The notes beneath the pieces are model-generated. The model did no database searches, was not told the DNA's origin, and saw only the letters and a list, made by a program, of their open reading frames with translations. Below, piece by piece: positions 21,636 to 42,355 of a stretch of DNA of 64,000 nucleotides; the first letter of the stretch is position 1; the number at the start of each line of letters is the position of its first letter. The DNA is taken from NCBI GenBank assembly GCA_963662585.1, contig OY759729.1, forward strand, positions 1,316,947-1,380,946, in the 5' to 3' direction. The stretch is from Candidatus Cloacimonadales bacterium (lineage in GTDB: Bacteria; Cloacimonadota; Cloacimonadia; Cloacimonadales; JAFGVF01). The position numbers were made by a program, and so were the translations under genes.

Positions 21636-24230
21636 TTAAATCATTTTAATTAAGTTTTTTGCTACTTTAATTGCTTCAGGAATCTTTGCAAGATCTTTAC
21701 CACCTGCCATTGCTGAGTCTGCTCTTCCTCCACCTTTTCCACCCAGAATAGCAGCTAATTGCCCAACAATTTTACCAGCATGATAGCTCTTGGTTAAATT
21801 AGGAGTAACTACTGTAAGCAGAGATACTTTATCTTCAAATCTAGCAATTAGCACACCAATACCAGATTTCAGTTTATCTTTTAATTGATCCCCAAGAGTT
21901 CTTAAATCATTAGGGTTATCTACTTTAACTTCGCTAACAACAAGTGTTATATCATCAATTATTTCAGCTTTTGCAATTAGATCGTTGATTATAGACGAAC
22001 CCTCTTTTGCTTTTAATTCTTCAATTTCTCTTTTTAATTCTCGACTCTCATCTAAGAGCTTTTCTATTTTTTCTTCTATATTTTTATCATTTGCATTAAC
22101 AAGTGCTTTTATAGTGTCTAGTTTTCCTTCTTGATTGCGTAGATATTCCATAACTTTATCACCTGTTATGGCTTCAATTCTTCTAATACCTGCAGCAGAA
22201 GAAGATTCAGTCAGTATTTTGAAAGAAGCAATTTCACCTGTTGATTTAACATGAGTTCCCCCACAAAGTTCCATGGAGAAATCTGCAACTGAAACAACTC
22301 TCACTTCATCACCATATTTTTCTCCAAAGAGAGCCATTGCTCCTGATTCTTTTGCTTCTTCAATCGACTTAACTTCAACTGAGACTTTGTTATTGCTTCT
22401 AATTTGAGCATTAACAATATCTTCTACTTGAGTTATCTCTTGAGGGGTTAAACCATTAAAATGAGTAAAATCAAATCTTAAGCCTTTGTTATCAACTAAA
22501 GAACCTTTTTGTTGCACATGAGAGCCCAAAACGCTTCTAAGAGCTGAATGAAGTAGATGAGTTGCAGTATGGTTAGAGGCAATATCTCTGCGAAGGCTTT
22601 GAGTAACACTTGCTTGAACTTTCCCTCCAATTATCATCCCAGAAATAAGTTTTCCGATATGAATCCAAGCTCCTGAGACTTTCTTAACATCGAATACTTT
22701 TACCAAGAAGTCCTTGTTCTTAATTTCGCCTTTATCACCAGTTTGTCCGCCTGATTCAGCATAGAATGGAGTTTTATCCAGCACTATTTTAACTATCTTC
22801 TTTTCATCAATAGCGTAGCGTAAGATGGTGCTTTCAGAGGTTAATGATTCATAGCCGATAAAATCAGTTTGTTGATTTTTTTCCACAAACACCCATTCAG
22901 TGTCATCAACATCCATAGAAAATTTAGAGTTTTGTCTAGCTCTTTCTTTCTGTTCTTCCATTGCCAGATTAAAGCCTTGCATATCAACAAATAGTCCTCT
23001 CTCCTCAGCTAAAATAGTTGTTAAATCTACTGGAAAGCCAAAAGTATCATATAAGGTAAAAGCTTCTTTACCTGGAATTATCTTATTTTCTAAGTTATTA
23101 GCAATGTCTTCAAATCTCTCTAACCCCTTATCTAAAGTCTGATTAAATCTCTCTTCTTCAGCCTTGATAATCATTATTATATAGTCTCTCTTATCGTTAA
23201 GTTCACTAAAATGATCACCCATAACATCGATAACAGAATCAACTAATTTATATAAGAAAGGTTCTTTAAGACCAATTTTTCTACCATATCGGGCAGCTCT
23301 TCTGAGAATTCTTCTGAGAACATAACCTCTTCCCTCATTAGAAGGCATTCCACCATCTCCCAAGGCAAAAGTTAAACATCTGATATGATCTGCTATAACC
23401 CTATGTGGAATTGAGGTTTCAGGATCGTAAGCAACCTTAGAAATCCTACTAATCTCATTAATAATTGGCATAAAGAGATCAGTATGATAATTTGAATCTT
23501 TGCCTTGAAGAATCTGACAAATTCTCTCGAAACCTGAACCAGTATCAACATGAGTCTTCTTTAGAGGTGTTAAACTACCATCAAGCTCACGATAATATTG
23601 CATAAAGACGAGATTCCAAATTTCCATATAGCGATGGCAATCACCATTTACATCGCACTTATGTTCACCTTCAACACCACAGAAATCTGTGCCACGATCA
23701 TAATGAATTTCTGAACATGGTCCGCAAGGTCCTGTTTCACCCATCTCCCAAAAGTTGTCTTTATCGCCATGATAAGAAATATGAGAAGGGTCAATATCTG
23801 TTAACTCTTTCCAGAGGTCATAAGCTTCTTGGTCAGAATCATGAACAGAAGCATAAAGTCTTGATTTATCTAATTTCCAAACATCGGTTATTAGTTCCCA
23901 GGCCCAAGTAATAGCCTCTTTTTTGTAATAATCACCAAAAGACCAATTTCCTAACATTTCAAAGAAAGTATGATGATATCCATCTTTTCCCACTTCATCC
24001 AAGTCGTTATGTTTTCCACCTGCTCTAATACACTTTTGAGAATTAACAGCCCGCAAATATTTTGCTTCTACTTTATCTAAAAATATATCTTTAAATTGAT
24101 TCATCCCTGCATTAATAAATAGAAGGGTTGGATCATCTTGAGGAATCACCGGTGATGATGGAACAAAGGTATGACCCTTGGACTTAAAAAAATCTATAAA
24201 TTGAGCTCTGATTTCGCTACTCTTTTTCAT
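21636..24230 (-). CDS. alaS: Alanine--tRNA ligase
   Basis: 864 aa with a typical N-terminus (IRAQFIDFFKSKGHTFVPSS), an editing-domain HxxxH (HTATHLLH) and CGGTH motifs, and a C-terminal DHHA1-like domain. Confidence 0.95.
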   Translation of the reverse strand: MKKSSEIRAQFIDFFKSKGHTFVPSSPVIPQDDPTLLFINAGMNQFKDIFLDKVEAKYLRAVNSQKCIRAGGKHNDLDEVGKDGYHHTFFEMLGNWSFGDYYKKEAITWAWELITDVWKLDKSRLYASVHDSDQEAYDLWKELTDIDPSHISYHGDKDNFWEMGETGPCGPCSEIHYDRGTDFCGVEGEHKCDVNGDCHRYMEIWNLVFMQYYRELDGSLTPLKKTHVDTGSGFERICQILQGKDSNYHTDLFMPIINEISRISKVAYDPETSIPHRVIADHIRCLTFALGDGGMPSNEGRGYVLRRILRRAARYGRKIGLKEPFLYKLVDSVIDVMGDHFSELNDKRDYIIMIIKAEEERFNQTLDKGLERFEDIANNLENKIIPGKEAFTLYDTFGFPVDLTTILAEERGLFVDMQGFNLAMEEQKERARQNSKFSMDVDDTEWVFVEKNQQTDFIGYESLTSESTILRYAIDEKKIVKIVLDKTPFYAESGGQTGDKGEIKNKDFLVKVFDVKKVSGAWIHIGKLISGMIIGGKVQASVTQSLRRDIASNHTATHLLHSALRSVLGSHVQQKGSLVDNKGLRFDFTHFNGLTPQEITQVEDIVNAQIRSNNKVSVEVKSIEEAKESGAMALFGEKYGDEVRVVSVADFSMELCGGTHVKSTGEIASFKILTESSSAAGIRRIEAITGDKVMEYLRNQEGKLDTIKALVNANDKNIEEKIEKLLDESRELKREIEELKAKEGSSIINDLIAKAEIIDDITLVVSEVKVDNPNDLRTLGDQLKDKLKSGIGVLIARFEDKVSLLTVVTPNLTKSYHAGKIVGQLAAILGGKGGGRADSAMAGGKDLAKIPEAIKVAKNLIKMI

Positions 24231-24817: not shown

Positions 24818-25447
24818 TTAGTTATTAGAAAATATATTCTCAATGACTTTAGGTAACTTAGGGATAATTCTTACTTCTATCCTTCTGTCATTTTGGCTAT
24901 AATAGCTTTCACTATCTTTATTTGAGTCTTTTTTAGGTTTTTCCGATCCGTATGAAGCTTGAACAATATCTACATTCTTTTTTAACTGATCATCTAAATT
25001 AAGTTTTATCTGTTTAACGAAAGATCTTGCCCTATTTAAACCCAATTTGTAATTATCATAACCAAATTCATCTCCAGACCTATCGGTATGCCCTTCAACA
25101 ATTATACAATACTTTTTATATCTATCATTATTTATAAGAAAATCATTCAATGCTTTGGAGAACTTTACCGCAAATGCTATCCCTTCATCATTCAACTCAG
25201 ATTTAGATATACTGAATAAAATAGATTCATTAATAATAATCTTATTCTCCATTTTTACATATTCAATGTTAGGTATATTTTCCAATAAATAACTAATATC
25301 ATTAAACTCTTTTAACTCTTCGTCTTCAAATTGTTTTATTGTAAAAAAAAATATATAAAATAGAACTAAGAAAATAAAAAACAATGAAAGAAAAATATCA
25401 ACAAAAGAAGCCCAATAATTGATATCATTTTCAGATTCGTACATCAT
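24818..25447 (-). CDS. MotB/ZorB-like protein: single TM with conserved Asp plus OmpA-like peptidoglycan-binding domain
   Basis: The TM helix WASFVDIFLSLFFIFLVLF has an embedded Asp as in MotB/ZorB. The OmpA-family motif is IIVEGHTDRSGDEFGYDNYKLGLNRARSFV. The start overlaps the upstream stop (ATGA). Confidence 0.75.
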   Translation of the reverse strand: MMYESENDINYWASFVDIFLSLFFIFLVLFYIFFFTIKQFEDEELKEFNDISYLLENIPNIEYVKMENKIIINESILFSISKSELNDEGIAFAVKFSKALNDFLINNDRYKKYCIIVEGHTDRSGDEFGYDNYKLGLNRARSFVKQIKLNLDDQLKKNVDIVQASYGSEKPKKDSNKDSESYYSQNDRRIEVRIIPKLPKVIENIFSNN

Positions 25448-27018
25448 AATCTCTTTCCGAATAAATGGCCCATAATACCCTTATTTTTGGTTGTATCAGG
25501 ACTACTTACCTTATCTTCTGATGTATGTTTATTGGATACGACATCTCTAATATTCTCTTCTAATTTCACTAATTGGTTAGAAATCTTTTTGTTAAGATTT
25601 TCATAATTTTCTATTAGATGGTTATCATCCCTAGATAATTTTAATAATTTCGTTATTTCGTCAGTATTAACTATATTAACAGATACATTTTCTTGACTTT
25701 TTATAAAACCAAAAAGATCATAAATATTTTTCTCAAATTTCTCTAGGTTCTGAGTTAATTCACTACTGAACTGAATGCTATGGTTACTGTAATCTTCCAT
25801 AATTTTGGTAGTAATTCTTGTAATATCATCAAATGCTATTTTTGCATCAATAGTTCGAATACTTACATCAGATATTTCGTTAAAATATTTCCCTAAATTT
25901 CCAACAAGTTTATCAATATTTTCAACATAATTGGGGATATCCACCATGTTTTCTAAAGATTTTGCTGATTTCACAAATGACTCAAGAGTATTATCTAATT
26001 TTAACATAGAATTTAGTGTTTGATCTGTCCTAGAATGAAATAAATTAGAAGACTGTAAAATATTCTCTATTTCTGGTAAAAGGGAATCTATGGCTGTCAA
26101 GTTGTTATTGCTTACAATATTATTTTTCAGAGCTAAAGAAGAATTTTCATCCATCCCTTGGTTTAACTTATTAAGATCACCAAAAATGGTTGTAAATTCT
26201 TGTTTTTGATTGATTAATATATCTTCATACTTCCTTAAATGCTTATCATTAATTTCAGTAAATGATTTAGTAAAATTTATAATTGTATTATTGATCAATG
26301 ACATTATACTTTCAATTCTATCAATACTCATTGCAGTTGTTTCATATTTACTTTCAATAAACGCTTTATTTTCTTCTCGATAATCTAACAAAAAATTTCC
26401 TAAAGCTACTTCTAAATTTTCGACAGAAGAGATTAATCTATTATCGAATTTAGATATGTAAGTTTTGGGCAAAAACATGGTTGAAAAGATTGTTTCAACA
26501 TCATGGATTCTACGAACAATTTCAGATTTTACTAAGGACCAAATTATACGAATAATTATTGTTGTAAATAGAGCAATAAGCGAAGTTATAAATCCAAACT
26601 TAGCTGAATCAATTAATGATAACATGATTTTCTGAGTTTCATAATCACTACCAAATGAAGAGATTCCAATTATTATTCCCAAAAATGTTCCCAATAAACC
26701 AACAATTGGTAAAATATTGGTTATTAGATTTATTTTCCTATCTGTTTTATTCAAATCATAATATATGAAATTTTTAAATATCTCAATTTTAATCTCACTT
26801 TTATTTTTGATAGAATTATACACATATAATAAATGTGGCTCTTGTCTAATAAAATCTAAATTTAACTTCATAAAGTCAGTAATACTGGAATTACTAAATA
26901 ACTCATTATTACTTTCGATGTCTTCTATTCTTTCCAATTGATGATATATAGATAGTAGCAAAACTGTTAACCCAACGATAACAATTAGAGCTGACACGAT
27001 CATTGCTCCAATAAACAT
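25444..27018 (-). CDS. MotA/ExbB/ZorA-like proton-channel protein with ~350-aa helical C-terminal tail
   Basis: Three TM helices with a MotA_ExbB-type signature (NILPIVGLLGTFLGIIIGI...FGFITSLIALFTTIIIRI). The remaining ~350 aa are low-complexity alpha-helical/coiled-coil sequence. An AAGAGG RBS lies upstream. Confidence 0.7.
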   Translation of the reverse strand: MFIGAMIVSALIVIVGLTVLLLSIYHQLERIEDIESNNELFSNSSITDFMKLNLDFIRQEPHLLYVYNSIKNKSEIKIEIFKNFIYYDLNKTDRKINLITNILPIVGLLGTFLGIIIGISSFGSDYETQKIMLSLIDSAKFGFITSLIALFTTIIIRIIWSLVKSEIVRRIHDVETIFSTMFLPKTYISKFDNRLISSVENLEVALGNFLLDYREENKAFIESKYETTAMSIDRIESIMSLINNTIINFTKSFTEINDKHLRKYEDILINQKQEFTTIFGDLNKLNQGMDENSSLALKNNIVSNNNLTAIDSLLPEIENILQSSNLFHSRTDQTLNSMLKLDNTLESFVKSAKSLENMVDIPNYVENIDKLVGNLGKYFNEISDVSIRTIDAKIAFDDITRITTKIMEDYSNHSIQFSSELTQNLEKFEKNIYDLFGFIKSQENVSVNIVNTDEITKLLKLSRDDNHLIENYENLNKKISNQLVKLEENIRDVVSNKHTSEDKVSSPDTTKNKGIMGHLFGKRL

Positions 27019-27029
27019 ATTTAACCTCT

Positions 27030-27935
27030 TTATTCTAAAATAATTTTACCTTTCTGCTGAATTATGAATGTCCCTTGAGAACTCTTAGTGTATGTAGGGT
27101 TTGAAACAATTTTAAAGTCTTTCTTTTGCACTGTTTCATTATTAATAACTGGATATTCAAAGGCATCACTATACCTTGAAAAAAAACTGTTATAATTATT
27201 GATATTAATTTTCATTTGAATTGTTAGTACATATTCATTGTCTTCAAGTTCTTCTAAAAACATATTTGAGTCAGCAGAATCAGTTTCTAATTCCTTAGAA
27301 AATGTTTTAAAAGTTACCCATATCTTTTCTTTTACAATCTCCGGTATATCATCTTTAGTAACTTCTGGTTTCTTATTACTTTCGGTAGCAGAATATTGAA
27401 CTAGATTATTGTTAGAAAGTTCTTTAGATGAATGATTACTTACACCATCTTTTTTTTTTTGGTTTTCTCCTTGGTTTGTCTCTCTGTTATTAATTCTATT
27501 ATTAATGATTAATTCTTTAGGTCTTTGAGGAACTTCTTTCTCTTTCTCCTCTTCTACATTTGTTTTTATATCATTAGTTTTTAGTTTTACTCTTTCTTCT
27601 AGTAAAGAGATGTCCCTTTTTAGTGTATTTAATTTATAATTTAAGTCATCTTTTTTTGTTTCAAGATGTTCAAATAATGAACGATAATCTCTACGATAAT
27701 CTCTAAATGATAAATTATATTTTATGTCTATAGTATAAATTATAACATCTATCAATACTAATAAAGAAGCAATAATGAATACAAAGATATAAGCATAATA
27801 TTTCTTGAAGCTTATTAAATTCAACTGGTTTAAGGGTTTAAAAAACATAAGAAGAATAGTTACAATAAAAATCACTGTTATTATATAAAAGGTAATTCTC
27901 AATGTTATTATTCTATTAGAATATTTACTTTTCAT
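27030..27935 (-). CDS. Two-TM coiled-coil protein, unknown function
   Basis: Two N-terminal TM helices, a coiled-coil segment (LNYKLNTLKRDISLLEERVKLK), a polar low-complexity linker and a ~100-aa C-terminal domain. The gene is tightly packed in the operon. Confidence 0.6.
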   Translation of the reverse strand: MKSKYSNRIITLRITFYIITVIFIVTILLMFFKPLNQLNLISFKKYYAYIFVFIIASLLVLIDVIIYTIDIKYNLSFRDYRRDYRSLFEHLETKKDDLNYKLNTLKRDISLLEERVKLKTNDIKTNVEEEKEKEVPQRPKELIINNRINNRETNQGENQKKKDGVSNHSSKELSNNNLVQYSATESNKKPEVTKDDIPEIVKEKIWVTFKTFSKELETDSADSNMFLEELEDNEYVLTIQMKININNYNSFFSRYSDAFEYPVINNETVQKKDFKIVSNPTYTKSSQGTFIIQQKGKIILE

Positions 27936-27939
27936 TAGA

Positions 27940-30900
27940 CTACTCCATTAGTAAATGATTTAGTTTTTTGATTAAATCCTGCATTCCGATAATAAAGATA
28001 GAACTAGACAAAGTTTGATATTTTTGATAATTATCAGTCATTGAAGTTCTAATTTTTCCCTCAATTTTCCCCCAATCATCAAATAAATCAAATAATAATT
28101 GATCCATATTCTTTAATTTTTCATCTTTGCTAAATATGTCTTTATACAGCTTACTTTCCTTGACAACATTAAAGAAATAAACATTAAATTTATATAAGTT
28201 TGTCTCTTCTTTGATTAAATTTAACTCAGATAATTTATTATCTTTTTCATTAAATATCTCATCAAATTCTGATATTTCTACAGAACATTCCTTAACGTTT
28301 CCATTAACATAAAGATTTTCATTAATCACAGGTGTATAAACTGAGTTCATGTCAGAGAATTTTTTATCCATATTGCACAATCCATATACAACTTCAGATT
28401 TATTTGAACTTGAAACTATGAAGTCAATATCCTTATCAACTTTTTCATCTGAATGTCTTAGACTGAAATTAATGATAGTTTTGTAAATTTCCAATTCATC
28501 CTCTAGAATTTTATTCTCTACTGGACTTGTCCAAGTAATTGATCTTATTCCATTTCCTGCTAAACAGACATCAATTTTGGTGTAATCATTAACATAATTT
28601 TTCATTTGTGAGCCAATTTCAAAAAATAGAGCACTATAAAAATATAACAATATTAAGCGAGGTCTATTAAATTTATCTTGAGTTGTCATTTTTTTCATAG
28701 ACTGAGTACTGATCTTTGAAACCATGATATTATAAATTGTTTTGAAATCTCCAGAATATGAATTCAATTCATTCTCGTTAACTTTATTGTCATATAGATA
28801 TCTTTCTTTAATTATATCATATAAAGGAGAAATTATTTTCATATTGCTATCTTTATAACCAATAACATTGTTACCTGCCCATAAATGACTAAATAGCATC
28901 AAAATTCCACCATTTTTCCAAATTGAAATATCTGATGATCCCCCTCCAACATCTATTACAATTGAGAGATTTGATGAGTTTTTTTCAATTTTACCAATAT
29001 GATTAAAGTACATTAAGCTTGCTTTACTTTCATCATAAGATTCAATATTCGGGTTGTTTAATATGTTACTCCACATGATATTATAATTTCTAATCTGTTC
29101 ACTAGAGAAGGCTTTCGGATAAGCCCATCTAAATAAAGTACTTTCGAGATTAACACGTTTTTTAATAAGCTCTGCATAAACTAAAAAGAATATAGTTTTG
29201 AGAAATGCTTCAGACCTTACTTGATTTTCATTATTAATATGCCATTTTAAGTTATAATATTCTTCTAGATTTATTCTCAAAATATTTAAATTTTTCACAT
29301 AGGAAATTACAGAGTCACGTATTGGTATCGGATGTTCATTTCTTTTATCTATATAAATCCTAGTATTAAATGGCATATTTACAGAATAATCTTTACTATT
29401 ATCATTTAAAAAAACGTTAGGTAAAAACCAATTAGTTATATTTTTCCAAAAATCTGTAATTATTGGATTTGCTTTTATTTCTTTATCTGTTGGAGATATA
29501 GATGATATAAATTCATGTTTGTTAATATTTATCTCATCAAATAAAGAATTATACTTCAACAATTCACAATTAGTATCATTTTGATGATCATCAATCAATA
29601 TTGCTACATTAGTGTGGGAAGTCCCAAAATCAAAACCAACAATTGCATTGTTTTTACAATTCTCAACATCAGTTAAATTGCTTAAATTCAGTATCAAATA
29701 ATTATAATTTTTGGATGTCTTTTCAATAAGCTTAATATATACTGGAAGTTTTTTTAAAGCCGCTACTTCAATTTGAGTTACATCTTGCTCCCCTGTTTTT
29801 CGAGAAGGATCATAAATTATAGGTGTAAATTTTGAATCATAAAATTCAACATTTAAATCAAATTTATCATTCAAACTCTTAGATACTAGCAAATAATATG
29901 GAAGTCGCCATTGTTTAGAATTTATTTTAGGCCATATAAGTACATTGGGTACAGGAGTTTCTTCATTAACAAATTTCAACAATATATTTTCTTCATTACT
30001 ATTAACACCTTGATGATAATATTTATTAATATTGATAATTCCATTCTTAGTAGGTATATCTAAACTAACTTTAATACCTTTACTACCTGCATCTGAGATA
30101 GACAGATATTTTTCAACATCAGCATAGTCAAAGTAGGTGAAATACAAATCAGTCAGTGGTATTGTATATTTTGATAGAGAGCTTTCTTCCCCTAGAACAA
30201 AATTATTTTTATTGAAATCTACATTGTTTTGAATAATAAACGGAGTAAAAAAATCGTGGAAAGGACTTATCCAAGGATATTTTACTTGTTCACCTGGAAG
30301 AACAAATCTATTCTTATTTTTTAATTCCGATAGTTTATAATTTTTATACCATTTATAACTATCATAAATAACACTATTTACCATATTATGGTCAGGATTT
30401 ATTATCAATGGTAGTATCCTTTGGTCACTTTTACTAGGATTAATTATTAAACCAGAGCTTAAAATACCACCTTTATAGATTCTTAATTTATCAAGCATTC
30501 CTTCTTCATTATTGAAAAGAGGGTCATTTTCATCTGGCAATTTAGAAAAACTAATATTACAATTTTCACAAATACCTTTGTCTTCCAGAAGAGCATTATA
30601 AAGTACCTTATAATCTGGGTTACTCTTTAGTTCAGGCAACAGATAATACATAATATATATTTGAAACCGCTCAGGTCTGTCTTTTAATAAAACAGGTTTT
30701 CTAAAGTACCTCTTTAAGTATCGATTCTCTGTTATTTCCTGTGAAATGAAAAATAAGGAATTGGGACATGTGCCTCCTAAAACAATCTCTCGATTACTTA
30801 GTGTTTTAATTGTTAAAATATTGATTTTCTTTATTTCTGGGCCAAAAGGAAACAGCTCAAAAATCTCTCTAATAATACTATCTTTATTATTTTCAAAAGT

Positions 30901-31200
30901 TACTTCATGTCTAATGATTTCAAATTCAAATCTATCACGGAAAAATAACATTTCTAATAAATCAAGTAAATAGGACATATAAACTATATGTAATGGGTTT
31001 TTATGATCTTCAATAATATTTATAAAATGAATCATTCTTTCCCAGGGAGATGGAACAGAATATCCTTGGCTGGAACTTTCACTACTATTTTGTTCAATCA
31101 TGTTATAAAAATTCTCAAAATCTTTGCTAAAGTCAATCCATTTACCAGGTGCTGGATTAGACATCTGGTTCTTATTCTTAGGTAGTAAGTGCCTTGGCAT
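27940..31200 (-). CDS. 1086-aa protein: unknown N-terminal half fused to an Hsp70/actin-fold (ASKHA) ATPase-like C-terminal half
   Basis: Phosphate-1-like VGFDFGTSHTNVA (aa 521-533), phosphate-2-like VIDVGGGSSDISIW (aa 748-761), adenosine-like DVCLAGNGIRS (aa 877-887) and KSEVVYGLC (aa 934-942) appear in the canonical order. There is no Walker A or DEAD/H box. A strong AAGGAGA RBS lies upstream. Confidence 0.65.
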   Translation of the reverse strand: MPRHLLPKNKNQMSNPAPGKWIDFSKDFENFYNMIEQNSSESSSQGYSVPSPWERMIHFINIIEDHKNPLHIVYMSYLLDLLEMLFFRDRFEFEIIRHEVTFENNKDSIIREIFELFPFGPEIKKINILTIKTLSNREIVLGGTCPNSLFFISQEITENRYLKRYFRKPVLLKDRPERFQIYIMYYLLPELKSNPDYKVLYNALLEDKGICENCNISFSKLPDENDPLFNNEEGMLDKLRIYKGGILSSGLIINPSKSDQRILPLIINPDHNMVNSVIYDSYKWYKNYKLSELKNKNRFVLPGEQVKYPWISPFHDFFTPFIIQNNVDFNKNNFVLGEESSLSKYTIPLTDLYFTYFDYADVEKYLSISDAGSKGIKVSLDIPTKNGIININKYYHQGVNSNEENILLKFVNEETPVPNVLIWPKINSKQWRLPYYLLVSKSLNDKFDLNVEFYDSKFTPIIYDPSRKTGEQDVTQIEVAALKKLPVYIKLIEKTSKNYNYLILNLSNLTDVENCKNNAIVGFDFGTSHTNVAILIDDHQNDTNCELLKYNSLFDEININKHEFISSISPTDKEIKANPIITDFWKNITNWFLPNVFLNDNSKDYSVNMPFNTRIYIDKRNEHPIPIRDSVISYVKNLNILRINLEEYYNLKWHINNENQVRSEAFLKTIFFLVYAELIKKRVNLESTLFRWAYPKAFSSEQIRNYNIMWSNILNNPNIESYDESKASLMYFNHIGKIEKNSSNLSIVIDVGGGSSDISIWKNGGILMLFSHLWAGNNVIGYKDSNMKIISPLYDIIKERYLYDNKVNENELNSYSGDFKTIYNIMVSKISTQSMKKMTTQDKFNRPRLILLYFYSALFFEIGSQMKNYVNDYTKIDVCLAGNGIRSITWTSPVENKILEDELEIYKTIINFSLRHSDEKVDKDIDFIVSSSNKSEVVYGLCNMDKKFSDMNSVYTPVINENLYVNGNVKECSVEISEFDEIFNEKDNKLSELNLIKEETNLYKFNVYFFNVVKESKLYKDIFSKDEKLKNMDQLLFDLFDDWGKIEGKIRTSMTDNYQKYQTLSSSIFIIGMQDLIKKLNHLLME

Positions 31201-31209
31201 CTTGTCTCC

Positions 31210-32580
31210 TTACAAAATATTGTTTAAGTTTTTTATGATTTTATCAATAAAGTCACCCGTAAGATCAATATCATCAAATAATATTTTATCAAAGTATGAA
31301 GAATCTTTCTTTCTGTATTTATCTTTGTTATTAAATAATAATGTAGATAAATTTAGCTCTGAATCAATGATCTTCAAAGCAGGCGCATTATTACTCATTT
31401 GCCAAATCCAGATTTTGAACAATTCCATAAATTCAATTAGTTTTTTAAACTCGTTAGAATTTTCTATAAATGTAGGATAAGTAATATCTAATTTTCTTAA
31501 CCAACCAATTCTATTTATTATTTTCTTGTTTTTGCTAATTAGTAATCCATTCAAATCAATCAAGTAATTGTATATTAATCCCATTTTTTCAAATGGCTCA
31601 TTCTTCTTTTTATGGGGTAGGTCTTCAGACATTAGCGAATAGTCATCAATATTTTCAGTGGGATTACTCGCACCAATTCTCATAAATGATGAATATTTTT
31701 TGTTTTCCCAAAAATTAATAGCTGAATATCCTGCAAGTAATTCTATAAAATGAGAATCATTGATCTGAGTTTTATTACCAATAGAATAATTATCAATTAT
31801 TTTTGTATTTGCAAAATCTTCTCCGATGATATAAACACTGTCAAAATTCTCATACTTCTCTTTATAGTACTGACAGGAAGAAATAGTATTACCAATGAAG
31901 TTAGCAGAATCTGGCAATATTTCATCTTTATCATTAGTATGTAAGTTTTTGTTAAGATGAAAATATGGAAGAATCAGAGATCCGCCAACAGAAGTTTTCG
32001 GCGATTGATTCTTTATCATTCGCGATATAACAGGAAAACCTGAAGCTCCTGTACCTCCAAATACTGAACTAAACAGAAACACTTTATCATCTTCATTTTT
32101 TTTAAGTTTCTGGATTATTAAATCCCATGGAAATAATTTACTATTATTTATAAAGTTTGACATTAACAACGAACCTATCGATGGCCTAGCCCTATAACCA
32201 AAAGTTAGATCTAAATTAAGTTCCTTTTTTGAATATAAAAGGTCTAATAATGCTTGTTCATCTTCGTTTAAACCGTTATAATTTACTATTTTTTTTAGAT
32301 TATTGTTTTCATTATTAATATTAACATGAGGATTTATCCTTTTAATTAAAGATATTGAAGTAAAAAATAATGAACCTTTGCTTGGTTCCTTTAAATGTTG
32401 ACGGATTTCCTGATAATGTTTAGCAAGATCTTCAGCCCTATTTGCATTACCATTCCCAGCATCTGGATCAATAATATATATATCTACTTCACTTGGACCT
32501 AATCCCATAGCACAGAGAAATATAAAAGATTCAAGACATCTTGTTCCTGTCCCACCAACTGCAAAAATATGATAAGTCAC
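31210..32580 (-). CDS. Tubulin/FtsZ-superfamily-like GTPase (Tubulin_2 / FtsZ-like type)
   Basis: An N-terminal Gly loop IFAVGGTGTR (aa 5-14) and a tubulin-signature-like FGGTGASGFPV (aa 174-184) follow a beta-strand (KVFLFSSVF). The GTG start overlaps the upstream TAG stop (TAGTG). Confidence 0.6.
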   Translation of the reverse strand: MTYHIFAVGGTGTRCLESFIFLCAMGLGPSEVDIYIIDPDAGNGNANRAEDLAKHYQEIRQHLKEPSKGSLFFTSISLIKRINPHVNINNENNNLKKIVNYNGLNEDEQALLDLLYSKKELNLDLTFGYRARPSIGSLLMSNFINNSKLFPWDLIIQKLKKNEDDKVFLFSSVFGGTGASGFPVISRMIKNQSPKTSVGGSLILPYFHLNKNLHTNDKDEILPDSANFIGNTISSCQYYKEKYENFDSVYIIGEDFANTKIIDNYSIGNKTQINDSHFIELLAGYSAINFWENKKYSSFMRIGASNPTENIDDYSLMSEDLPHKKKNEPFEKMGLIYNYLIDLNGLLISKNKKIINRIGWLRKLDITYPTFIENSNEFKKLIEFMELFKIWIWQMSNNAPALKIIDSELNLSTLLFNNKDKYRKKDSSYFDKILFDDIDLTGDFIDKIIKNLNNIL

Positions 32581-32999
32581 TAAAAGCTCCTTTTATCGAA
32601 GATTCTTGTTATATATATCTTTTCTTTAAAAACACCTATTTCATTTAAAATCGTTATAATAATAATATAAACTAAAGCATTAACAATAAAGTGATTAATC
32701 ACAAACATAAATATCATTGATGTTATATCTATTGTATCAAGAATAGCTAACTTTTTTATTGAAAGATAGATAGTATATATAGTATTCACACAAATATCAA
32801 TCACAAAAAACAACCAAAAATAATATCTACCTTTTATCCTACTATAAGGAATAAAATAGTAACCAATAATTAAAAAAATTATAGTTCCCAAACCAACTAA
32901 CATTGCCCGATCCATAGTAGTCATCCATGTATTGAGATTATCGGTTCCTAGTTTTGTAAGTTCTCCATATAATAAAAAATATACTATTTTATAAAGCAT
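32580..32999 (-). CDS. Small 4-TM membrane protein, unknown function
   Basis: 139 aa with about four hydrophobic helices. It starts 1 nt after the upstream stop and its own stop overlaps the next start. Confidence 0.55.
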   Translation of the reverse strand: MLYKIVYFLLYGELTKLGTDNLNTWMTTMDRAMLVGLGTIIFLIIGYYFIPYSRIKGRYYFWLFFVIDICVNTIYTIYLSIKKLAILDTIDITSMIFMFVINHFIVNALVYIIIITILNEIGVFKEKIYITRIFDKRSF

Positions 33000-33000
33000 T

Positions 33001-34281
33001 CTATTTCCTTTTATTAATTTTTAAGTAATACTCACTATTGCATAATTGCCCACTAACTAGCATTTTTTCATTAATTGCTTCAATTAATGAACTGATTTTA
33101 TATGTCTTTTCTTTATTTTCTAAAATACTATCATCTTCAGTGTTATTCAGATAAACCCATTTATATTTATCAATACTATCCCGAAAAGTTAATCTACATA
33201 AATACTCTCCAATCGAAGAATCCCCAAAAGGTAACAAAAAAGTTATCTTTTTTCCCTGATTACCAGAAATCACATTCTGAGAATTAAGATTAATCGACCC
33301 ACTATATTTGGAATTTACTGAAACTAATGAATCTGTTATGTTTATTATTTTATAATCAATAACATTTCCTATATCATAAGTAAAGTTTTTCAAAGTTATT
33401 CGTAAAGAATCAGCATTTTCATTCAAATTATACTCAGTCAATGGGATATTTTCAAATTGTTTATTCATATAAAAGGTAGGTGGAAAATTATAGCCATCAA
33501 TATTATCAGAATATTTTAGATTGTTTGTCATTTTCTCACTAAATCTAATTGAAAAATCGAAAATATTTTTTACTTTCTTATTAATGAGATATTCGCTATT
33601 ACTTCTACCTATGAATAACCCATAAATAGGTCTTTTTATTTGTAATACTTTAGGAAGATATTGCTTCTTTGCTTCTGAATAATAGTTTCCTAAAAAATCA
33701 ATTTTTTTCATATAAATATTTAAGAAACCTTTTTTTGCAACCAGATCCGAAAGTTTAGCTGGAAATAATTGAGAATCGATTTCTGAGTATTCAGTTGATA
33801 GGATAAGATCTGTTAAAATTAAGTAGACAGAGTTAAAGTCATCTTTTTCAATAAAATCTATAACTTTTAAAAAATTGGTATATTGGTCATCATATTTCAA
33901 ATGTTTCTCATTGTTTTTATCAGGCTTGATGTAATAAATTGATTCCGCAATATCACCTTCAATTTCTTTAATACTAGATCCAAAAGTATATAATTTAATA
34001 TCTTCATTGCTAAAATTGCTACATATTGAAGAAATTAATCCTACCATACTACTATTACCAGTTGTATATCCTTTCATTGTTGCACTTACATCAATGAAAA
34101 TCTTCATACTCTTTAATGAGTCAGAAGTTGAAGGTTGATAAACTCCGAAATATTCATTTAACACTGATAAATTTTCTTTTTTATCTTCAAATAAATTACT
34201 ATCGTTAATTCCAGTATACTTATTACAACTAATGAGCAATGCCAATAAACATAACATAAAAATGAATGATTTCACAGTCAT
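33001..34281 (-). CDS. vWA-like lipoprotein (start revised to internal ATG)
   Basis: The lipoprotein signal MTVKSFIFMLCLLALLISC starts at the ATG at 34281, preceded by a GGAGA RBS. A candidate promoter lies inside the longer listed ORF. vWA/MIDAS-like motifs occur in order: KIFIDVSATMKG (DxSxT), IKLYTFGSS, YTNFLKVIDFI, VYLILTDL. Confidence 0.55.
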   Translation of the reverse strand: MTVKSFIFMLCLLALLISCNKYTGINDSNLFEDKKENLSVLNEYFGVYQPSTSDSLKSMKIFIDVSATMKGYTTGNSSMVGLISSICSNFSNEDIKLYTFGSSIKEIEGDIAESIYYIKPDKNNEKHLKYDDQYTNFLKVIDFIEKDDFNSVYLILTDLILSTEYSEIDSQLFPAKLSDLVAKKGFLNIYMKKIDFLGNYYSEAKKQYLPKVLQIKRPIYGLFIGRSNSEYLINKKVKNIFDFSIRFSEKMTNNLKYSDNIDGYNFPPTFYMNKQFENIPLTEYNLNENADSLRITLKNFTYDIGNVIDYKIINITDSLVSVNSKYSGSINLNSQNVISGNQGKKITFLLPFGDSSIGEYLCRLTFRDSIDKYKWVYLNNTEDDSILENKEKTYKISSLIEAINEKMLVSGQLCNSEYYLKINKRK

Positions 34282-34309
34282 TATAATCTCCATTTTACTT
34301 AGTATACAA

Positions 34310-34338
34310 ATTAATAAAGGCATATCTTTTTTTGTCAA
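34310..34338 (-). promoter_or_regulatory. Candidate sigma-70 promoter of the seven-gene operon
   Basis: The minus strand reads TTGACA (34338-34333), 17 nt, then ATTAAT (34315-34310), about 25-30 nt upstream of the ATG at 34281. Confidence 0.4.
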
Positions 34339-34450
34339 GAGTTTATTTATTAGTAATAAAAATTTGGCATCATAATTGAATCATAACAATATAACTATCT
34401 ATATTAACAATGAAGATTTATTAACTAAGCTAACATTTAACACAAATCGA

Positions 34451-36556
34451 GTAGGGTGGTGCGTTAGCACCATCCCTCTCACAGAACCGTGCGTACGGGA
34501 CTCGTACACGGCTCCTGATAAACCTTGTAATTATTCATAATAATTAAATAAAACACTTGTAGGTTTCGATAGTAAGTCATATAGCCCTAATTGCTCAAAC
34601 CATTCATTAGGTAAAGCTCTATGAATATGATAACAACCAGAATTCCTCCAATGTGTCATAGATATTTTCGGAAAATCACTTTTATGCCCAACTCTTCTAA
34701 GTTGTTGGTGAAAAGCTTTCCAACTTTTCCATTCCCGCATTTTCTTCATTCTTAGTCGCCGCCTTATCCATGATAATAGAGACTGAAAGACTCCTTTGCA
34801 ATTTGCCACCCTAAAGTAATTCGACCAACCTCTCAATATCGGATTAAGTCTTTTAATCATTGTCTGGACATTAATTCCGCTATTCCGTGGAGTCAGTGAC
34901 CGAATCTTATCTTTGAACGCTTTTACTCTTTTATCCTCTATCTTTACATATGATTCATGTATTTCGAAGCCAAGATACTTGACTCCTTTAAATACACTCG
35001 CAATATGTGTCTTTTCTTCATTTACGATGAGATAAATTGAGTTTAGATATTCTACCGCAATTCGTTGATATTGTTCTGCTTTTTTCTTAGTCTTAGCAAA
35101 AAGTAAAATGTCATCAGCATAGCGTACTATCTCGATTCCTCGACTTTTCATTTCTTGGTCAAAACTATCAAGATATATGTTCATAAGAAGTGGAGAGATT
35201 ACCCCTCCTTGTGGACTTCCTACTTCAGTTTCGCTATACTTCCCTTCTTGCATAACACCAGACTTTAAGATTTTCTCTATCAACTTTAATAATGTTCCGT
35301 CACTTATTTTCCTATTTAATGATTGCATTATGAATTTATGATTTAATGTATCAAAACATTTTGATAAATCCATATCCACTACAAAAGGAAGCTCTTCCTG
35401 AACCATTAATATATGTGCTTTAGCCACTGCCTTTTGACAACTTTTGTTGGGACGGTAGCCATAGCTTTGTGGATGAAAATCAGGTTCAAAAATTGGTTGG
35501 ATGATGTTATTTATTGCCTGCTGTACGATTCTATCTTTTACAGTAGGTATTCCTAATGGCCTCATCTTACCATTTCCTTTAGGTATCTCTACCCGTTTCA
35601 CAGGTGATGGGATATACTTCCCACTTTTCAATTCTAAATGAATCTGCTCTAAGTTCTCTTGTAGAGTCTCACCAAACTTAGATATAGTAATATTATCTAT
35701 ACCTTCTGCACCTCTATTTTTCTTTACCTTTAGGAAAGATTCATAGAGATTACCTTTTGAGTAAACTTTATCAATTAAACTGTACCACTTTTTCATTTAG
35801 TTTCTCCTTTTTCACAATAAACAATGTTTAAATTATACTTTCAAATGACAGTTAATTCAATGAAGACCTTCGAAGTTTTTAGCATAAAGCAATCTATCAA
35901 AGATTTTATAGGTTTTGACTATTATCCTTTTTTTAACTTCATCTACTCAGTCTCGTAAGGTCATGATAGAAAGAAGGTACTCACCACCGTCTATCCGAGC
36001 CTTGAATCTTTCGATTCTCTTCGTTTCCTACTTTTAAGAAAATATCTCTTTAATTATGTTTATTCTTTGGTTTATCTTCATCCCTTCACATGAGATATTT
36101 CCTTTTGAAAAATATCCCCCAATATTACTAAGAATATTGTCCCCTCTGTTTTATCCTCCAGTCTGTCACCAGCTTTCATAGGCAAAGGGTTAGTCACTAC
36201 TACGGAATCATCTGCCACCTGCTTATGCTTAATACAACTCTTGCCTTTCAGCTTGTAGTCATAGTTACTCTATTAGAGACATTAACAGGCTTCCCCAGTT
36301 AAGCTATCCTGCCTGAATGTAAATCCATCTGTTGTAATCCATGTAATCGACTGACTTTTGGGCGTTCTCACTTTTCGAAGAGTTACCCACTACATGAACC
36401 AAAATCAGTTTACTTTCGCTATGTTCCACATTCTTCCTGCGTCTTACTTCAGACCCTGCCGTTGCCAGCAACGCCCTTGACCTCAGATTGACTTCCTGTC
36501 AGTTGGGTGTCAGGACTTCTTTCAGTCCATCGGCTCAGATAACATTCTGGGCAAAC
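34451..36556 (-). mobile_element. Group II intron (full length, ORF in domain IV)
   Basis: On the minus strand, domain V GAGCCGUGUACGAGUCCCGUACGCACGGUUC (AGC triad) and a domain VI-like hairpin ending ...CACCACCCUAC at about 34451 directly follow the RT ORF. The GC-richer structured 5' part runs to about 36556 (GUUUGCCCAGA..., resembling the GUGCGCCCAGA-type 5' end). The 5' boundary is uncertain by about 10 nt. Confidence 0.8.
34531..35796 (-). CDS. Group II intron reverse transcriptase/maturase (no endonuclease domain)
   Basis: RT motifs including YADD (VRYADDILLF), RPLGIPTVKDRIVQQA and a maturase X motif (RGWSNYFR). At 421 aa there is no C-terminal HNH domain. Confidence 0.9.
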   Translation of the reverse strand: MKKWYSLIDKVYSKGNLYESFLKVKKNRGAEGIDNITISKFGETLQENLEQIHLELKSGKYIPSPVKRVEIPKGNGKMRPLGIPTVKDRIVQQAINNIIQPIFEPDFHPQSYGYRPNKSCQKAVAKAHILMVQEELPFVVDMDLSKCFDTLNHKFIMQSLNRKISDGTLLKLIEKILKSGVMQEGKYSETEVGSPQGGVISPLLMNIYLDSFDQEMKSRGIEIVRYADDILLFAKTKKKAEQYQRIAVEYLNSIYLIVNEEKTHIASVFKGVKYLGFEIHESYVKIEDKRVKAFKDKIRSLTPRNSGINVQTMIKRLNPILRGWSNYFRVANCKGVFQSLLSWIRRRLRMKKMREWKSWKAFHQQLRRVGHKSDFPKISMTHWRNSGCYHIHRALPNEWFEQLGLYDLLSKPTSVLFNYYE

Positions 36557-36610: not shown

Positions 36611-37690
36611 TTACTTTCCGTAGATTTTAGCTTCTTCTAAACCTTTAAGAACTCTAATTCCACCTTGACATAAAGCTTCCATCTCTTTTTCACCAGGGAA
36701 AAGCTCGATTGGAGCAATGAATTTAACTCTATCAGAAATAGTTTCTACAATCATATCATTATATACTAAGCCACCGGACATAAAGATAAGATCAACTTTT
36801 CCCTTAAGAACAGTAGCACAAGAACCAACTTCTTTAGCTACTTGATAGCACATTGCATCCTGAATTAATTTAGCTTTTTTATCGCCATTTTTAATCATTT
36901 CTGCAACATCTCTACCATCATCGGTACCTAAATAAGCAAGATATCCAGCTTTTTTAGATAAGTAGCCTAGTAATTCTTTCTTTGTATATTCACCAGAATA
37001 ACACATTTCAATAAGATCACCTATTGGTAAAGCACCTGCTCTCTGAGGAGAGAAAGGTCCCATTCCGAGAAGAGCATTATTAACATCCACAACTCTACCA
37101 TCTTTGATAGCAGCAACAGAAACACCACCACCCATGTGAATACCAATCATATTGCATTCAGAAAGAGGCTTGCCTAATTTTTCAGCTAATAAACGAGCTA
37201 TATATCTAATATTTAAAGCGTGAAAAAGTGATTGTCTTTTAATTTCAGGAATACCAGAAACTCGAGCAATTTCATCAAATTCATCAACCACAACAGGGTC
37301 AACGATATAAGCAGGAATACCATAATCGTTAGCTATTGATTCAGAGATAAAAGCTCCTAGATTAGAAGCGTGAATTCTTCCCCATAAAGCAGGGTCACTA
37401 AGATCTTTCTTCATCTCTTCATTAACAGTATAAGTTCCACCAGCTATAGCCTTCATTAGACCACCTCGGCCTACTACAGCAACTAAGCTTTTTGGATCTA
37501 CGCTGTTCTCTGCCATTGCTTCTAAAACTAACTTCTTTCTGTAATCATACTGCTCAATTATGCCACCAAAATTGTCTAATACTTCAGCATCATGTCTTAA
37601 TGTTTTAGTAAAAACTTCTTTGTGATCATCATAAACTGCGATTTTTGTTGATGTTGAACCAGGATTAATTGCTAATACGCGATTTTCCAT
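36611..37690 (-). CDS. buk: Butyrate kinase
   Basis: MENRVLAINPGSTSTKIAVYDD... and the overall acetate/butyrate kinase pattern. The start is revised to the ATG at 37690 with a GGAGGA RBS. The listed 56-aa extension is low-complexity read-through of the upstream region. Confidence 0.85.
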   Translation of the reverse strand: MENRVLAINPGSTSTKIAVYDDHKEVFTKTLRHDAEVLDNFGGIIEQYDYRKKLVLEAMAENSVDPKSLVAVVGRGGLMKAIAGGTYTVNEEMKKDLSDPALWGRIHASNLGAFISESIANDYGIPAYIVDPVVVDEFDEIARVSGIPEIKRQSLFHALNIRYIARLLAEKLGKPLSECNMIGIHMGGGVSVAAIKDGRVVDVNNALLGMGPFSPQRAGALPIGDLIEMCYSGEYTKKELLGYLSKKAGYLAYLGTDDGRDVAEMIKNGDKKAKLIQDAMCYQVAKEVGSCATVLKGKVDLIFMSGGLVYNDMIVETISDRVKFIAPIELFPGEKEMEALCQGGIRVLKGLEEAKIYGK

Positions 37691-37786
37691 AATTCCTCCA
37701 TTATTTAATTTTATCTTTTCCCAAAAAAATAGATACAGGGAAATATGGTCAAGAAGTAATTGAATAAAATTTTTATCTTGATGTAA

Positions 37787-37821
37787 GAGAATTGAGAATT
37801 TAGAATTGAGAATTGAGAATT
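37787..37821. repeat. Five tandem heptamers GAGAATT (one TAGAATT)
   Basis: Read directly: GAGAATT GAGAATT TAGAATT GAGAATT GAGAATT, located 97-131 nt upstream of the buk ATG. Confidence 0.85.
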
Positions 37822-37859
37822 CACACGAATTATCGCTTATTAAAACAAATTTCACCAAT

Positions 37860-42044: not shown

Positions 42045-42075
42045 TTCCTAGGTTAAGCAAATAATTGAAGGGCTA

Positions 42076-42345
42076 ATGGGGAATATTGCGTTTTGGATTC
42101 TAATTCTACAGATATCTTTATTATCTGCTGTTCAGGATAATCAATCTAAGTTAAATATAAATAACATTACAAAAGATTACTTAGAAAATACTCAAGAAGA
42201 TCATGGCTCAAGTAATAAGAAAATATCTTTCTTTAATAATAACAAAGTTGATAGTTACTTTGCTGTCACCTTTGGTTTAAATAAATCTTTTCTTTATTCA
42301 TCAACGAATGATAAAGAGCTTATTCTTGAAATTATAGCACCATAA
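42076..42345 (+). CDS. Small hypothetical secreted protein
   Basis: 89-aa ORF with a hydrophobic N-terminus, immediately upstream of the MORN-repeat gene. Confidence 0.3.
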   Translation: MGNIAFWILILQISLLSAVQDNQSKLNINNITKDYLENTQEDHGSSNKKISFFNNNKVDSYFAVTFGLNKSFLYSSTNDKELILEIIAP

Positions 42346-42355
42346 GGAGATAATT

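Follow-up and report, generated by a model that had tools for sequence, protein, structure and literature searches.

The adjacent genes ftsA and ftsZ are the textbook pair of neighbours encoding an actin-fold and a tubulin-fold protein, with FtsA tethering FtsZ or regulating its assembly at the membrane. Related parts recur in other arrangements. In the FtsZl1 operons, a divergent FtsZ-like gene (Pfam Tubulin_2) is linked to genes for vWA and OmpA-family proteins and, in Deinococcus, for a MotA/TolQ/ExbB protein; the supplementary tables of the 2010 study place MotA and OmpA beside the Deinococcus FtsZl1 and a 1626-residue DnaK-like giant beside the FtsZl1 of Magnetospirillum, and most of the accompanying lineage-specific proteins had no assigned domains (PMC2875224). 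In Zorya, the tail of ZorA carries the invasion signal to soluble effectors (PMC11946911). The DO-GTPase/GAP1 conflict systems of Kaur et al. (2020) draw on membrane-proximal vWA, tubulin- and HSP70-superfamily proteins for which nucleoside triphosphate (NTP)-dependent assemblies were proposed, the tubulin and HSP70 themes forming separate neighbourhoods (PMC7159879). Here we describe a locus that shares components with each of these systems, found in a 64,000-nucleotide stretch (the window) of the Candidatus Cloacimonadales bacterium assembly GCA_963662585.1 (contig OY759729.1, positions 1,316,947 to 1,380,946). Its central gene encodes a protein of 1086 amino acids, hereafter the giant, which by sequence and structural model contains an ASKHA (actin/Hsp70-fold) ATPase domain and which is encoded beside an FtsZ/tubulin-like GTPase in a cassette that closes with ZorA-like and ZorB-like genes.

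The giant is one open reading frame at 27940–31200 on the minus strand of the window, with an ATG start and 1086 codons plus a stop in the window's open reading frame listing; all features of the giant and all cassette genes given below lie on this strand. Alignments with homologues run from residue 1 to about residue 1082, so the called start and length are right. The protein is predicted to be soluble, as hydropathy analysis gave no transmembrane segment, no signal peptide and no hydrophobic segment. A first-pass annotation, made from the letters of the window, had reported this single reading frame and proposed that it encodes a cryptic Hsp70/actin-fold ATPase, citing four motifs in canonical order between residues 518 and 945 (28366–29649). 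The reading frame and the motifs are where that annotation put them, and the ASKHA fold was recovered in an AlphaFold2 model, in Foldseek comparisons and in profile searches, with the phosphate-1, phosphate-2 and adenosine motifs located in homologous structural elements. As judged from sequence and model, the giant carries an ASKHA domain in which all nucleotide-binding and catalytic motifs are intact.

The domain, delimited by Foldseek and profile matches, covers residues 517–972 (28285–29652) and includes large insertions. Conservation was read from family alignments of 44–80 members that share about 20% identity. The phosphate-1 motif VGFDFGTSHTNVA (residues 521–533, 29602–29640) contains the invariant D524 and G526; its core VGFDFGTSHT (residues 521–530, of the DxG[TS] type) sits in the turn of the beta1-beta2 hairpin of the model, between strands 519–525 and 529–536, and the family profile aligned it with residues 6–35 of MreB and 4–31 of Hsp70 in searches of the PDB. 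Within NLKW (residues 650–653, 29242–29253), K652 and W653 are invariant in three alignments (A1, A2 and A8), and K652 is a candidate catalytic lysine. The connect-1 motif DESKASLMYF (residues 723–732, 29005–29034) holds the invariant E724. When a profile of the ASKHA region was searched with HMMER, the family's 'ipESvApyyyy' was paired with 'INEPTAAAIAY' of the BiP nucleotide-binding domain and 'DiGGGttD' with 'DLGGGTFD', and on this alignment E724 is the equivalent of the catalytic-site glutamate in the 'NEPTAAA' of Hsp70. The phosphate-2 motif VIDVGGGSSDISIW (residues 748–761, 28918–28959) has D750, G752, G753 and D757 invariant; its IDVGGGSSD (residues 749–757, of the DxGGG[TS]xD type) forms the hairpin of strands 745–751 and 756–762, and profile searches aligned it with 'IIDIGGGTTDLAI' of MreB and 'DLGGGTFD' of the Hsp70 BiP. 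Further along, the adenosine motif DVCLAGNGIRS (residues 877–887, 28540–28572; G882 invariant) places AGNGIRS (residues 881–887) at the junction of strand 875–881 and helix 883–889, and the connect-2-like KSEVVYGLC (residues 934–942, 28375–28401; K934 and G940 invariant) coincides with helix 936–942. P695 and S771 are likewise invariant. Across all six reading frames of the window, relaxed patterns for phosphate-1 and phosphate-2 have a single match each.

Structural comparison supports the same assignment. The AlphaFold2 model, built on 80 homologues, has a pLDDT of 87.5 and a pTM of 0.83, and a Foldseek search of its ASKHA domain against the PDB gave 708 matches at E ≤ 1e-3 with a probability of 1.0, all of those listed being ASKHA proteins. 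The top matches are Hsp70 Ssb (5tky, 8.8e-9) and MreB (1jce, 1.7e-8). TM-scores to MreB and actin range from 0.5 to 0.62, the target-normalised values for actin (6i4i among the structures) being 0.60–0.62, and the roughly 470 columns aligned to actin, MreB and the nucleotide-binding domain of Hsp70 cover the duplicated RNase-H-like two-lobe fold. Searched against the PDB, the full-length family profile matched MreB (7bvy, 8e-8), FtsA, the exopolyphosphatase Ppx, a crenactin-type actin, EutJ and Hsp70 nucleotide-binding domains; the profile matches also include MreB 7bvy at 1.6e-6 and BiP at 6.9e-6, and the strongest, to MreB and FtsA, lie around phosphate-2. By these E-values and TM-scores, MreB, FtsA and actin are no more distant from the domain than Hsp70 is, and the ASKHA superfamily is the only family under which the giant can safely be filed.

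Curated models capture little of this. Single-sequence searches of Pfam, NCBIfam and the PDB brought up EutA, MreB, FtsA, EutJ, DnaK and Ppx, all sub-threshold (E of about 0.02–0.2) and centred on phosphate-2. The giant scores 11.4 and 12.4 bits on Pfam MreB_Mbl and FtsA, below the cut-offs of 27 and 31.8, and reaches the gathering score of no Pfam family. Among 44 relatives, MreB_Mbl and FtsA each matched 16 at E ≤ 0.01 (best E-values 6e-6 and 1.6e-4), with the individually listed scores of these ASKHA-clan matches below the cut-offs and the matched stretches, where seen, local to phosphate-2. The giant shares its fold and catalytic motifs with the Hsp70 nucleotide-binding domain: D524 belongs to phosphate-1, E724 matches the glutamate of 'NEPTAAA', and DVGGGSSD has its counterpart in 'DLGGGTFD'. 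It differs in having neither a substrate-binding domain nor a J-protein or GrpE partner, and in that some relatives encode a separate true Hsp70 next door. Membership of Hsp70/DnaK proper was rejected, with DnaK models scoring 11–12.5 bits against cut-offs of 648–1002 and the C-terminus being a helical bundle only. A local PADLOC match to PDC-M61B, a protein of a candidate defence system (E 9.7e-7), falls on residues 472–568 (about 29497–29787), the phosphate-1 region, and covers 98 of the 588 profile positions (76–173); this probably reflects shared ASKHA phosphate-1 sequence. Typical family members, such as those of Parabacteroides and Janthinobacterium, are unmatched, and membership was rejected for a match that is local to phosphate-1 and missing from them.

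The giant founds an unnamed, uncurated and widespread family of proteins of about 1050–1200 residues. An exhaustive HMMER search found 467 cluster representatives that match it at E ≤ 1e-3, 122 of them below 1e-10; nearly all relatives are 1000–1200 residues long and align from the N-terminus onward, and the N-terminal region is present in all 467. The homologues P0003–P0008 are 33–36% identical to the giant over a full-length alignment. A word-indexed protein search returned a single relative, P0002, which is 20% identical and has these motifs conserved. The RefSeq label of the giant is 'hypothetical protein', the family has no model in Pfam, NCBIfam or PADLOC, and the literature searched contained no description of the giant family, of the cassette, or of a Zorya/tubulin/actin-like system, and no experiments on phage protection by the cassette.

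According to the models, the giant is a cytoplasmic protein of four parts: an N-terminal alpha/beta domain, an Ig-like beta-rich region, the ASKHA ATPase domain and a C-terminal helical bundle. The N-terminal domain (residues 1–205, 30586–31200) is defined by conserved columns and a confident model, with the signatures P50/A54 (consensus SIPSPWAR) and S145/P146 (consensus TSPxTLFFT); P348 and P424 are further signature positions of the giant. The beta-rich middle region (residues 240–515, 29656–30483) was delimited from the secondary structure of the models, in which its C-terminal part (about residues 366–504) forms Ig-like beta-sandwiches. When residues 1–515 were modelled alone, using the truncated window sequence aligned to full-length database proteins, the model was again confident (pLDDT 87.6). 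The first-pass annotation had recognised nothing in these 515 residues, and the searches bear it out: nothing matched in Pfam, NCBIfam or PADLOC, and nothing significant was found by Foldseek in the PDB (best matches Ig-type sandwiches, E of about 1e-2) or BFVD (best E of about 5e-3), or by profile search in the PDB, where the best match, to the Piccolo C2A domain, is weak (E 0.025). At the other end, the helical bundle (residues 976–1086, 27943–28275) is modelled with pLDDT above 90, and its F1069 is near-invariant. What is new here is an ASKHA family with a novel N-terminal module that constantly accompanies a tubulin-like GTPase outside the divisome.

The evidence for that partnership comes from other genomes. 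A scan of GTDB species representatives for the giant gave at least 157 loci. Eighty of them were examined with open reading frames called anew and iterated hidden Markov model searches; upstream counts refer to loci with enough upstream sequence. Genes for vWA-like and tubulin-like proteins stand upstream of the giant in 70 of the 72 such loci, the tubulin-like gene immediately so, at a median gap of 6 nt. The adjacency of the giant to this FtsZ/tubulin-like protein of about 490 residues is near-obligatory. The two are also found fused, with the tubulin-like part at the N-terminus, in proteins of 1529–1642 residues (P0042, P0043 and P0046, and also P0020 and P0097); in P0046, residues 16–310 match the tubulin-like protein of the window (E 7e-32) and residues 1102–1451 match the ASKHA domain of the giant. 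These fusions argue for direct physical contact, in the order tubulin-like C-terminus to N-terminal domain of the giant. The first-pass annotation was right that an actin-fold and a tubulin-fold protein are encoded side by side; calling this unusual overstated the case, given the classic ftsA-ftsZ pair and the conservation of the present pair in 70 of 72 loci.

The gene for the tubulin-like protein of the window (456 residues, 31210–32580) stands just ahead of the giant gene, with a gap of 9 nt. The protein matches Pfam Tubulin at E 7.3e-5, which at 23.6 bits is below the PF00091 cut-off of 33. Two glycine motifs, the T1-like GGTGTR (residues 9–14) and the T4-like SSVFGGTGASG (residues 171–181), are invariant in its family, and the family profile matches the T4 loop of FtsZ. 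As with FtsA and FtsZ, the gene for an ASKHA protein adjoins that for a GTPase of the tubulin/FtsZ fold. The giant differs from FtsA in being about 2.5–3 times larger and in having the 515-residue N-terminal region, large core insertions and the C-terminal bundle, and its partner differs from FtsZ in having neither FtsZ_C nor Tubulin_C, the cassette lying outside the dcw cluster. Compared with the FtsZl1 operons, the cassette likewise includes a vWA-like protein (a weak match) and an OmpA-domain protein, here ZorB-like. The published FtsZl1 proteins, however, are about 1000–1190 residues long against about 490 here, and the tubulin-like family meets Tubulin_2 (PF13809) only below threshold, with relatives matching at 3.7e-4 and 1.4e-3, under the 27-bit cut-off.

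The giant gene belongs to a cassette of seven same-strand genes (24818–34338) with intergenic gaps of −4 to +11 nt, in the order vWA-like lipoprotein, three-transmembrane protein, tubulin-like protein, giant, two-transmembrane protein, ZorA-like protein and ZorB-like protein. The ZorA-like protein (524 residues, 25444–27018) is a putative channel subunit of the MotA/ExbB family with three transmembrane segments and a helical cytoplasmic tail of about 345 residues. It scores on PADLOC ZorA2 (3.2e-9), Pfam MotA_ExbB (9.5e-5) and NCBIfam ZorA_2 (4.5e-5; 22.7 bits against a cut-off of 100), and the positions of G107, T111, G114 and P184 are conserved. The gene for the ZorB-like protein (209 residues, 24818–25447) overlaps that of the ZorA-like protein by 4 nt and encodes a putative MotB/OmpA-family subunit with one transmembrane segment, containing D17, and a peptidoglycan-binding domain. 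This protein matches PADLOC ZorB1 over its full length (1.8e-19), passes the Pfam OmpA cut-off (2.7e-6; 28.1 bits against 27.2) and is under the NCBIfam ZorB1 cut-off; the protonatable transmembrane aspartate D17 is kept in 42 of 44 relatives and the peptidoglycan-binding R139 in all 44. The vWA-like lipoprotein (33001–34338), whose family occurs in 76 loci, has a lipobox, LLISC, at residues 34–38 and a MIDAS-like DVSATM at residues 83–88; its family profile matched the vWA domain of TRAP (4hql) weakly (E 0.009), with the DxSxS/MIDAS motif aligned. Next to it, a small membrane protein of 139 residues (32580–32999) with three transmembrane segments by hydropathy has relatives at the same position in 55 loci. 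The last component, a membrane protein of 301 residues (27030–27935) with two transmembrane segments by hydropathy and a charged/coiled region, had no relative among 81 related loci and no link to the family that fills the same slot elsewhere, which in most loci is a secreted, transmembrane-anchored protein of about 400 residues (cluster 0). The position directly after the giant appears to be the hypervariable slot of the cassette.

The cassette resembles Zorya in closing with a ZorA-like protein, whose helical tail is long, and a ZorB-like protein that combines a transmembrane aspartate with a peptidoglycan-binding domain, both of which score best on Zorya models, and in encoding soluble partners alongside the stator (PMC11946911). 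It departs from Zorya in that none of its seven proteins matches ZorC/ZorD, ZorE or ZorF/ZorG in PADLOC; the tubulin-like GTPase and the giant replace the soluble components, a vWA-like lipoprotein and extra membrane proteins are added, and the ZorA and ZorB scores fall under the NCBIfam cut-offs. It belongs to none of the Zorya subtypes I–III. No Walker A motif and no P-loop or GTPase Pfam match was found in any cassette protein. The defining DO-GTPase and GAP1 proteins are absent from the window cassette, and membership of those systems was rejected, the cassette having no P-loop protein. We regard the cassette as a new Zorya/FtsZl1-type variant.

Loci with the giant are found mostly in Bacteroidota, including Hymenobacter, Prevotella, Bacteroides, Parabacteroides, Flavobacterium and Sphingobacterium, with others in Gemmatimonadota, Caldisericia, Acidobacteriota, Aminicenantes and a few Proteobacteria. 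Downstream of the giant, 47 of 66 loci have a ZorA-like gene and 40 of the 66 have a ZorB-like one, and it is this part of the cassette that varies. A Prevotella group has proteins of about 190 and 270 residues in place of ZorAB. In a Janthinobacterium lividum metagenome-assembled genome, a canonical Hsp70 (L050:12493-14154; Pfam HSP70 8e-67) directly follows the giant and replaces the ZorAB-like pair; this Hsp70 gene is followed by genes for proteins of 694 and 368 residues with no assigned family. Cyanobacterial plasmids carry a four-gene core from which ZorAB is absent altogether, each of the core genes being labelled 'hypothetical protein' in RefSeq. One of them, the mobilizable plasmid NZ_CP016476.1 of Picosynechococcus sp. 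PCC 7003 (227085-237611), encodes the core of vWA-like, small transmembrane, tubulin-like and giant proteins, followed by lipoproteins and a TM2-domain protein and likewise without ZorAB. About 13 loci have, downstream of the ZorB-like gene, a retropepsin-like aspartyl protease lipoprotein of about 181 residues with FDTGAS (for example L005, L011, L048 and L056), and about 13 have a staphylococcal-nuclease-like (SNase-like) protein of about 250 residues (for example L017, L018, L023, L048 and L056); trypsin-like peptidases occur in five flanking genes. The appended nuclease and protease bear signal peptides, and these accessory enzymes, none of which is present in the window, could be periplasmic effectors. 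A check of 106 flanking genes for defence genes gave scattered single matches only, which are suggestive and not decisive. Eight of 2.9 million IMG/VR contigs (L083–L090; predicted viral or prophage) carry the giant and most of the cassette, five of them the full cassette from the vWA-like through the ZorA-like gene, in either a prophage interior or co-assembled host flank; the giant was not found by tblastn in sequenced phage genomes.

In the window, the cassette has a GC content of 26.4% against 32–33.5% in the flanks and lies between alaS (21636–24230) and an acetate-kinase-like gene (36611–37858), and the low GC content together with this position suggests an island gained by horizontal transfer. 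A complete group II intron on the minus strand (34446–36471) is situated some 100 nt upstream of the first cassette gene and consists of Rfam domains D1-D4 (36304–36471), a reverse transcriptase/maturase reading frame (34531–35796) and domain V/VI (34446–34516). Some 8 kb from the cassette, a minus-strand gene (13099–16887) encodes a 1262-residue protein with an adenylate/guanylate cyclase, an AAA_16/NB-ARC (STAND-like) NTPase and TPRs, which could be a signalling or defence-type protein. The regions 16988–19969 and 39773–44239 encode a protein with a type IX secretion system C-terminal sorting domain (Por_Secre_tail), a radical-SAM protein beside the [FeFe]-hydrogenase maturase HydF, and a MORN-repeat protein. 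All of these are clues to an anaerobic host resembling the FCB group, with a GC content of about 32%.

Taken together, we propose that the giant is the ATPase partner of the tubulin-like GTPase in a Zorya-related sensing and response machine anchored to peptidoglycan, a reading for which we consider the chances to be about even. The giant would bind the tubulin-like GTPase directly and, in the part that FtsA plays for FtsZ, would tether or regulate at the membrane an assembly that depends on GTP, with ATP binding and hydrolysis in the ASKHA domain gating the interaction. This pair would form the cytoplasmic module of a trans-envelope machine whose membrane part would be a ZorAB-type 5:2 ion-driven stator fixed to peptidoglycan. 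The long tail of the ZorA-like protein would reach the giant/tubulin module, and the N-terminal and Ig-like regions of the giant would serve as the adaptor to the membrane complex, the ZorA tail being a plausible contact. If the parallel with Zorya holds, the motor would be switched on when the envelope is perturbed, for instance by an attacking phage, and the signal would pass down the ZorA tail to the tubulin-like/giant pair, placed as ZorC and ZorD are in type I Zorya. Conflict or envelope-stress defence is the most likely biological role, and it is the weakest step of the proposal. A bolder extension, which we put forward tentatively and expect to be wrong sooner than right, is that the long tail of a Zorya-type, ion-driven rotary stator, itself fixed to peptidoglycan, links this stator to a dedicated mini-cytoskeleton of a tubulin-fold GTPase and a giant actin-fold ATPase, similar to FtsZ/FtsA and not used for division. 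Such an unrecognised class of trans-envelope machine would turn envelope events, such as damage or phage attack, into assembly driven by nucleotides at the inner membrane, with the N-terminal domain of the giant as the adaptor between motor and filament.

How the giant itself is to be understood can be judged from the same data. That its ASKHA motifs are a chance resemblance, or belong to a degenerate pseudo-ATPase in a lineage-specific orphan, is very improbable: the uniformly sub-threshold single-sequence matches and the lone relative from the word-based search could be read in this way, but the exhaustive search yielded 467 relatives, the motif positions do not vary even though overall identity is about 20%, and the profile and structural matches are highly significant. 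We find it scarcely credible that the giant is a hidden ZorD-like or SrfB-like effector or virulence factor, diverged from a known family, for it is similar in size to ZorD and SrfB and adjoins ZorAB-like genes, yet its fold is ASKHA and not that of a helicase or nuclease. Identity with ZorD was rejected (the giant has neither a Walker A motif nor a DEAD/H box, and PADLOC matches it to none of ZorC, ZorD, ZorE, ZorF and ZorG), which agrees with the first-pass annotation that the giant is not a ZorD analogue by sequence; the SrfB family it had suggested checking was rejected too, with no match to Pfam SrfB (PF07520) at E ≤ 1 for the giant or at E ≤ 0.01 for 44 relatives. More serious, if still improbable, is an Hsp70-type chaperone or clamp in place of an FtsA-like tether or filament, whose ATPase cycle would open and close a client site formed by the N- and C-terminal parts and would remodel the tubulin-like polymer or the vWA partner. 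The best Foldseek E-value does belong to full-length Hsp70 Ssb (517 aligned columns), 'ESxAP' and 'DxGGGTxD' align to the 'NEPTAAA' and 'DLGGGTFD' of Hsp70, the nucleotide-binding domain is succeeded by a helical bundle, the next gene after the giant in the Janthinobacterium locus encodes a canonical Hsp70, and a vWA-plus-chaperone logic has precedent in NTP-dependent conflict systems with MoxR-vWA and HSP70 themes (PMC7159879). Conversely, the model has no Hsp70 substrate-binding beta-sandwich after the nucleotide-binding domain, Pfam HSP70 is unmatched by the giant and 44 relatives at E ≤ 0.01, Pfam finds no J-domain or GrpE partner in the cassette, and the strongest profile matches and highest TM-scores are to MreB and actin. 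The sequence of the ASKHA domain would fit actin-like polymerisation, Hsp70-like clamping or plain switching, which counts against our proposal.

The purpose of the complex is the larger question. Defence is favoured by the low-GC island, by carriage on plasmids and IMG/VR contigs, by the variable accessory nuclease and proteases and by the affinity to Zorya-type stators. Several observations count against our proposal. Eight Hymenobacteraceae loci (L035, L044, L047, L051, L058, L065, L071 and L073), from at least eight species of several genera, share the neighbours of the cassette, an NTP-transferase and LemA upstream and a protein of about 740 residues downstream; this synteny indicates long-term vertical inheritance and conflicts with the idea of a defence island that is purely mobile. 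The window cassette encodes no nuclease, protease or other obvious effector, and the motor would not be essential to the core four-gene module, since the cyanobacterial versions dispense with ZorAB. These three points disfavour defence. In addition, PADLOC has no model covering the giant, tubulin-like or vWA-like families, our inference that the giant touches the tubulin-like protein or the ZorA tail is drawn only from gene order and fusions, and all members of the family are known from sequence and modelling. The same complex might instead serve housekeeping, in membrane remodelling, vesicle formation or envelope maintenance, with the MotAB-like stator powering it as TolQR and ExbBD do; we rate this a possible explanation, and not a probable one. 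It would accommodate the chromosomal synteny kept across Hymenobacteraceae genera, the commonness of the cassette throughout Bacteroidota, gut genera included, the envelope-spanning set of lipoprotein, transmembrane and peptidoglycan-binding parts and the effector-free window cassette, as well as the signal peptides of the appended nuclease and protease, which would place these enzymes outside the cytoplasm; a membrane-remodelling role was also proposed for the FtsZl1 operons by Makarova and Koonin (PMC2875224). It accords less well with the stator scoring best on Zorya models (ZorB1 1.8e-19, against 0.014 for MotB PRK06667 and 0.006 for ExbB), with the low-GC insertion adjoining a group II intron in this genome, with a patchy distribution that includes plasmids and IMG/VR contigs, and with downstream modules that differ between lineages.

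No function has come to light since 2010 for the FtsZ-like proteins outside cell division, FtsZl1 and its relatives. For one such lineage, sequence and modelling point to a constant partner, an actin/Hsp70-fold ATPase with intact catalytic motifs that is sometimes fused to it, and this provides a concrete hypothesis of a second, non-divisome pair of tubulin-fold and actin-fold proteins in bacteria. The giant of the cassette is invisible to current annotation. The link to ZorAB-like proteins suggests that Zorya-type motors may be wired to effectors unlike the DNA-binding ZorC and the nuclease ZorD, and should the cassette be an immune system, the concept of Zorya would be broadened. As the cassette is common in Bacteroidota, including Bacteroides, Parabacteroides and Prevotella of the human gut, the biology of this family is open to genetics.

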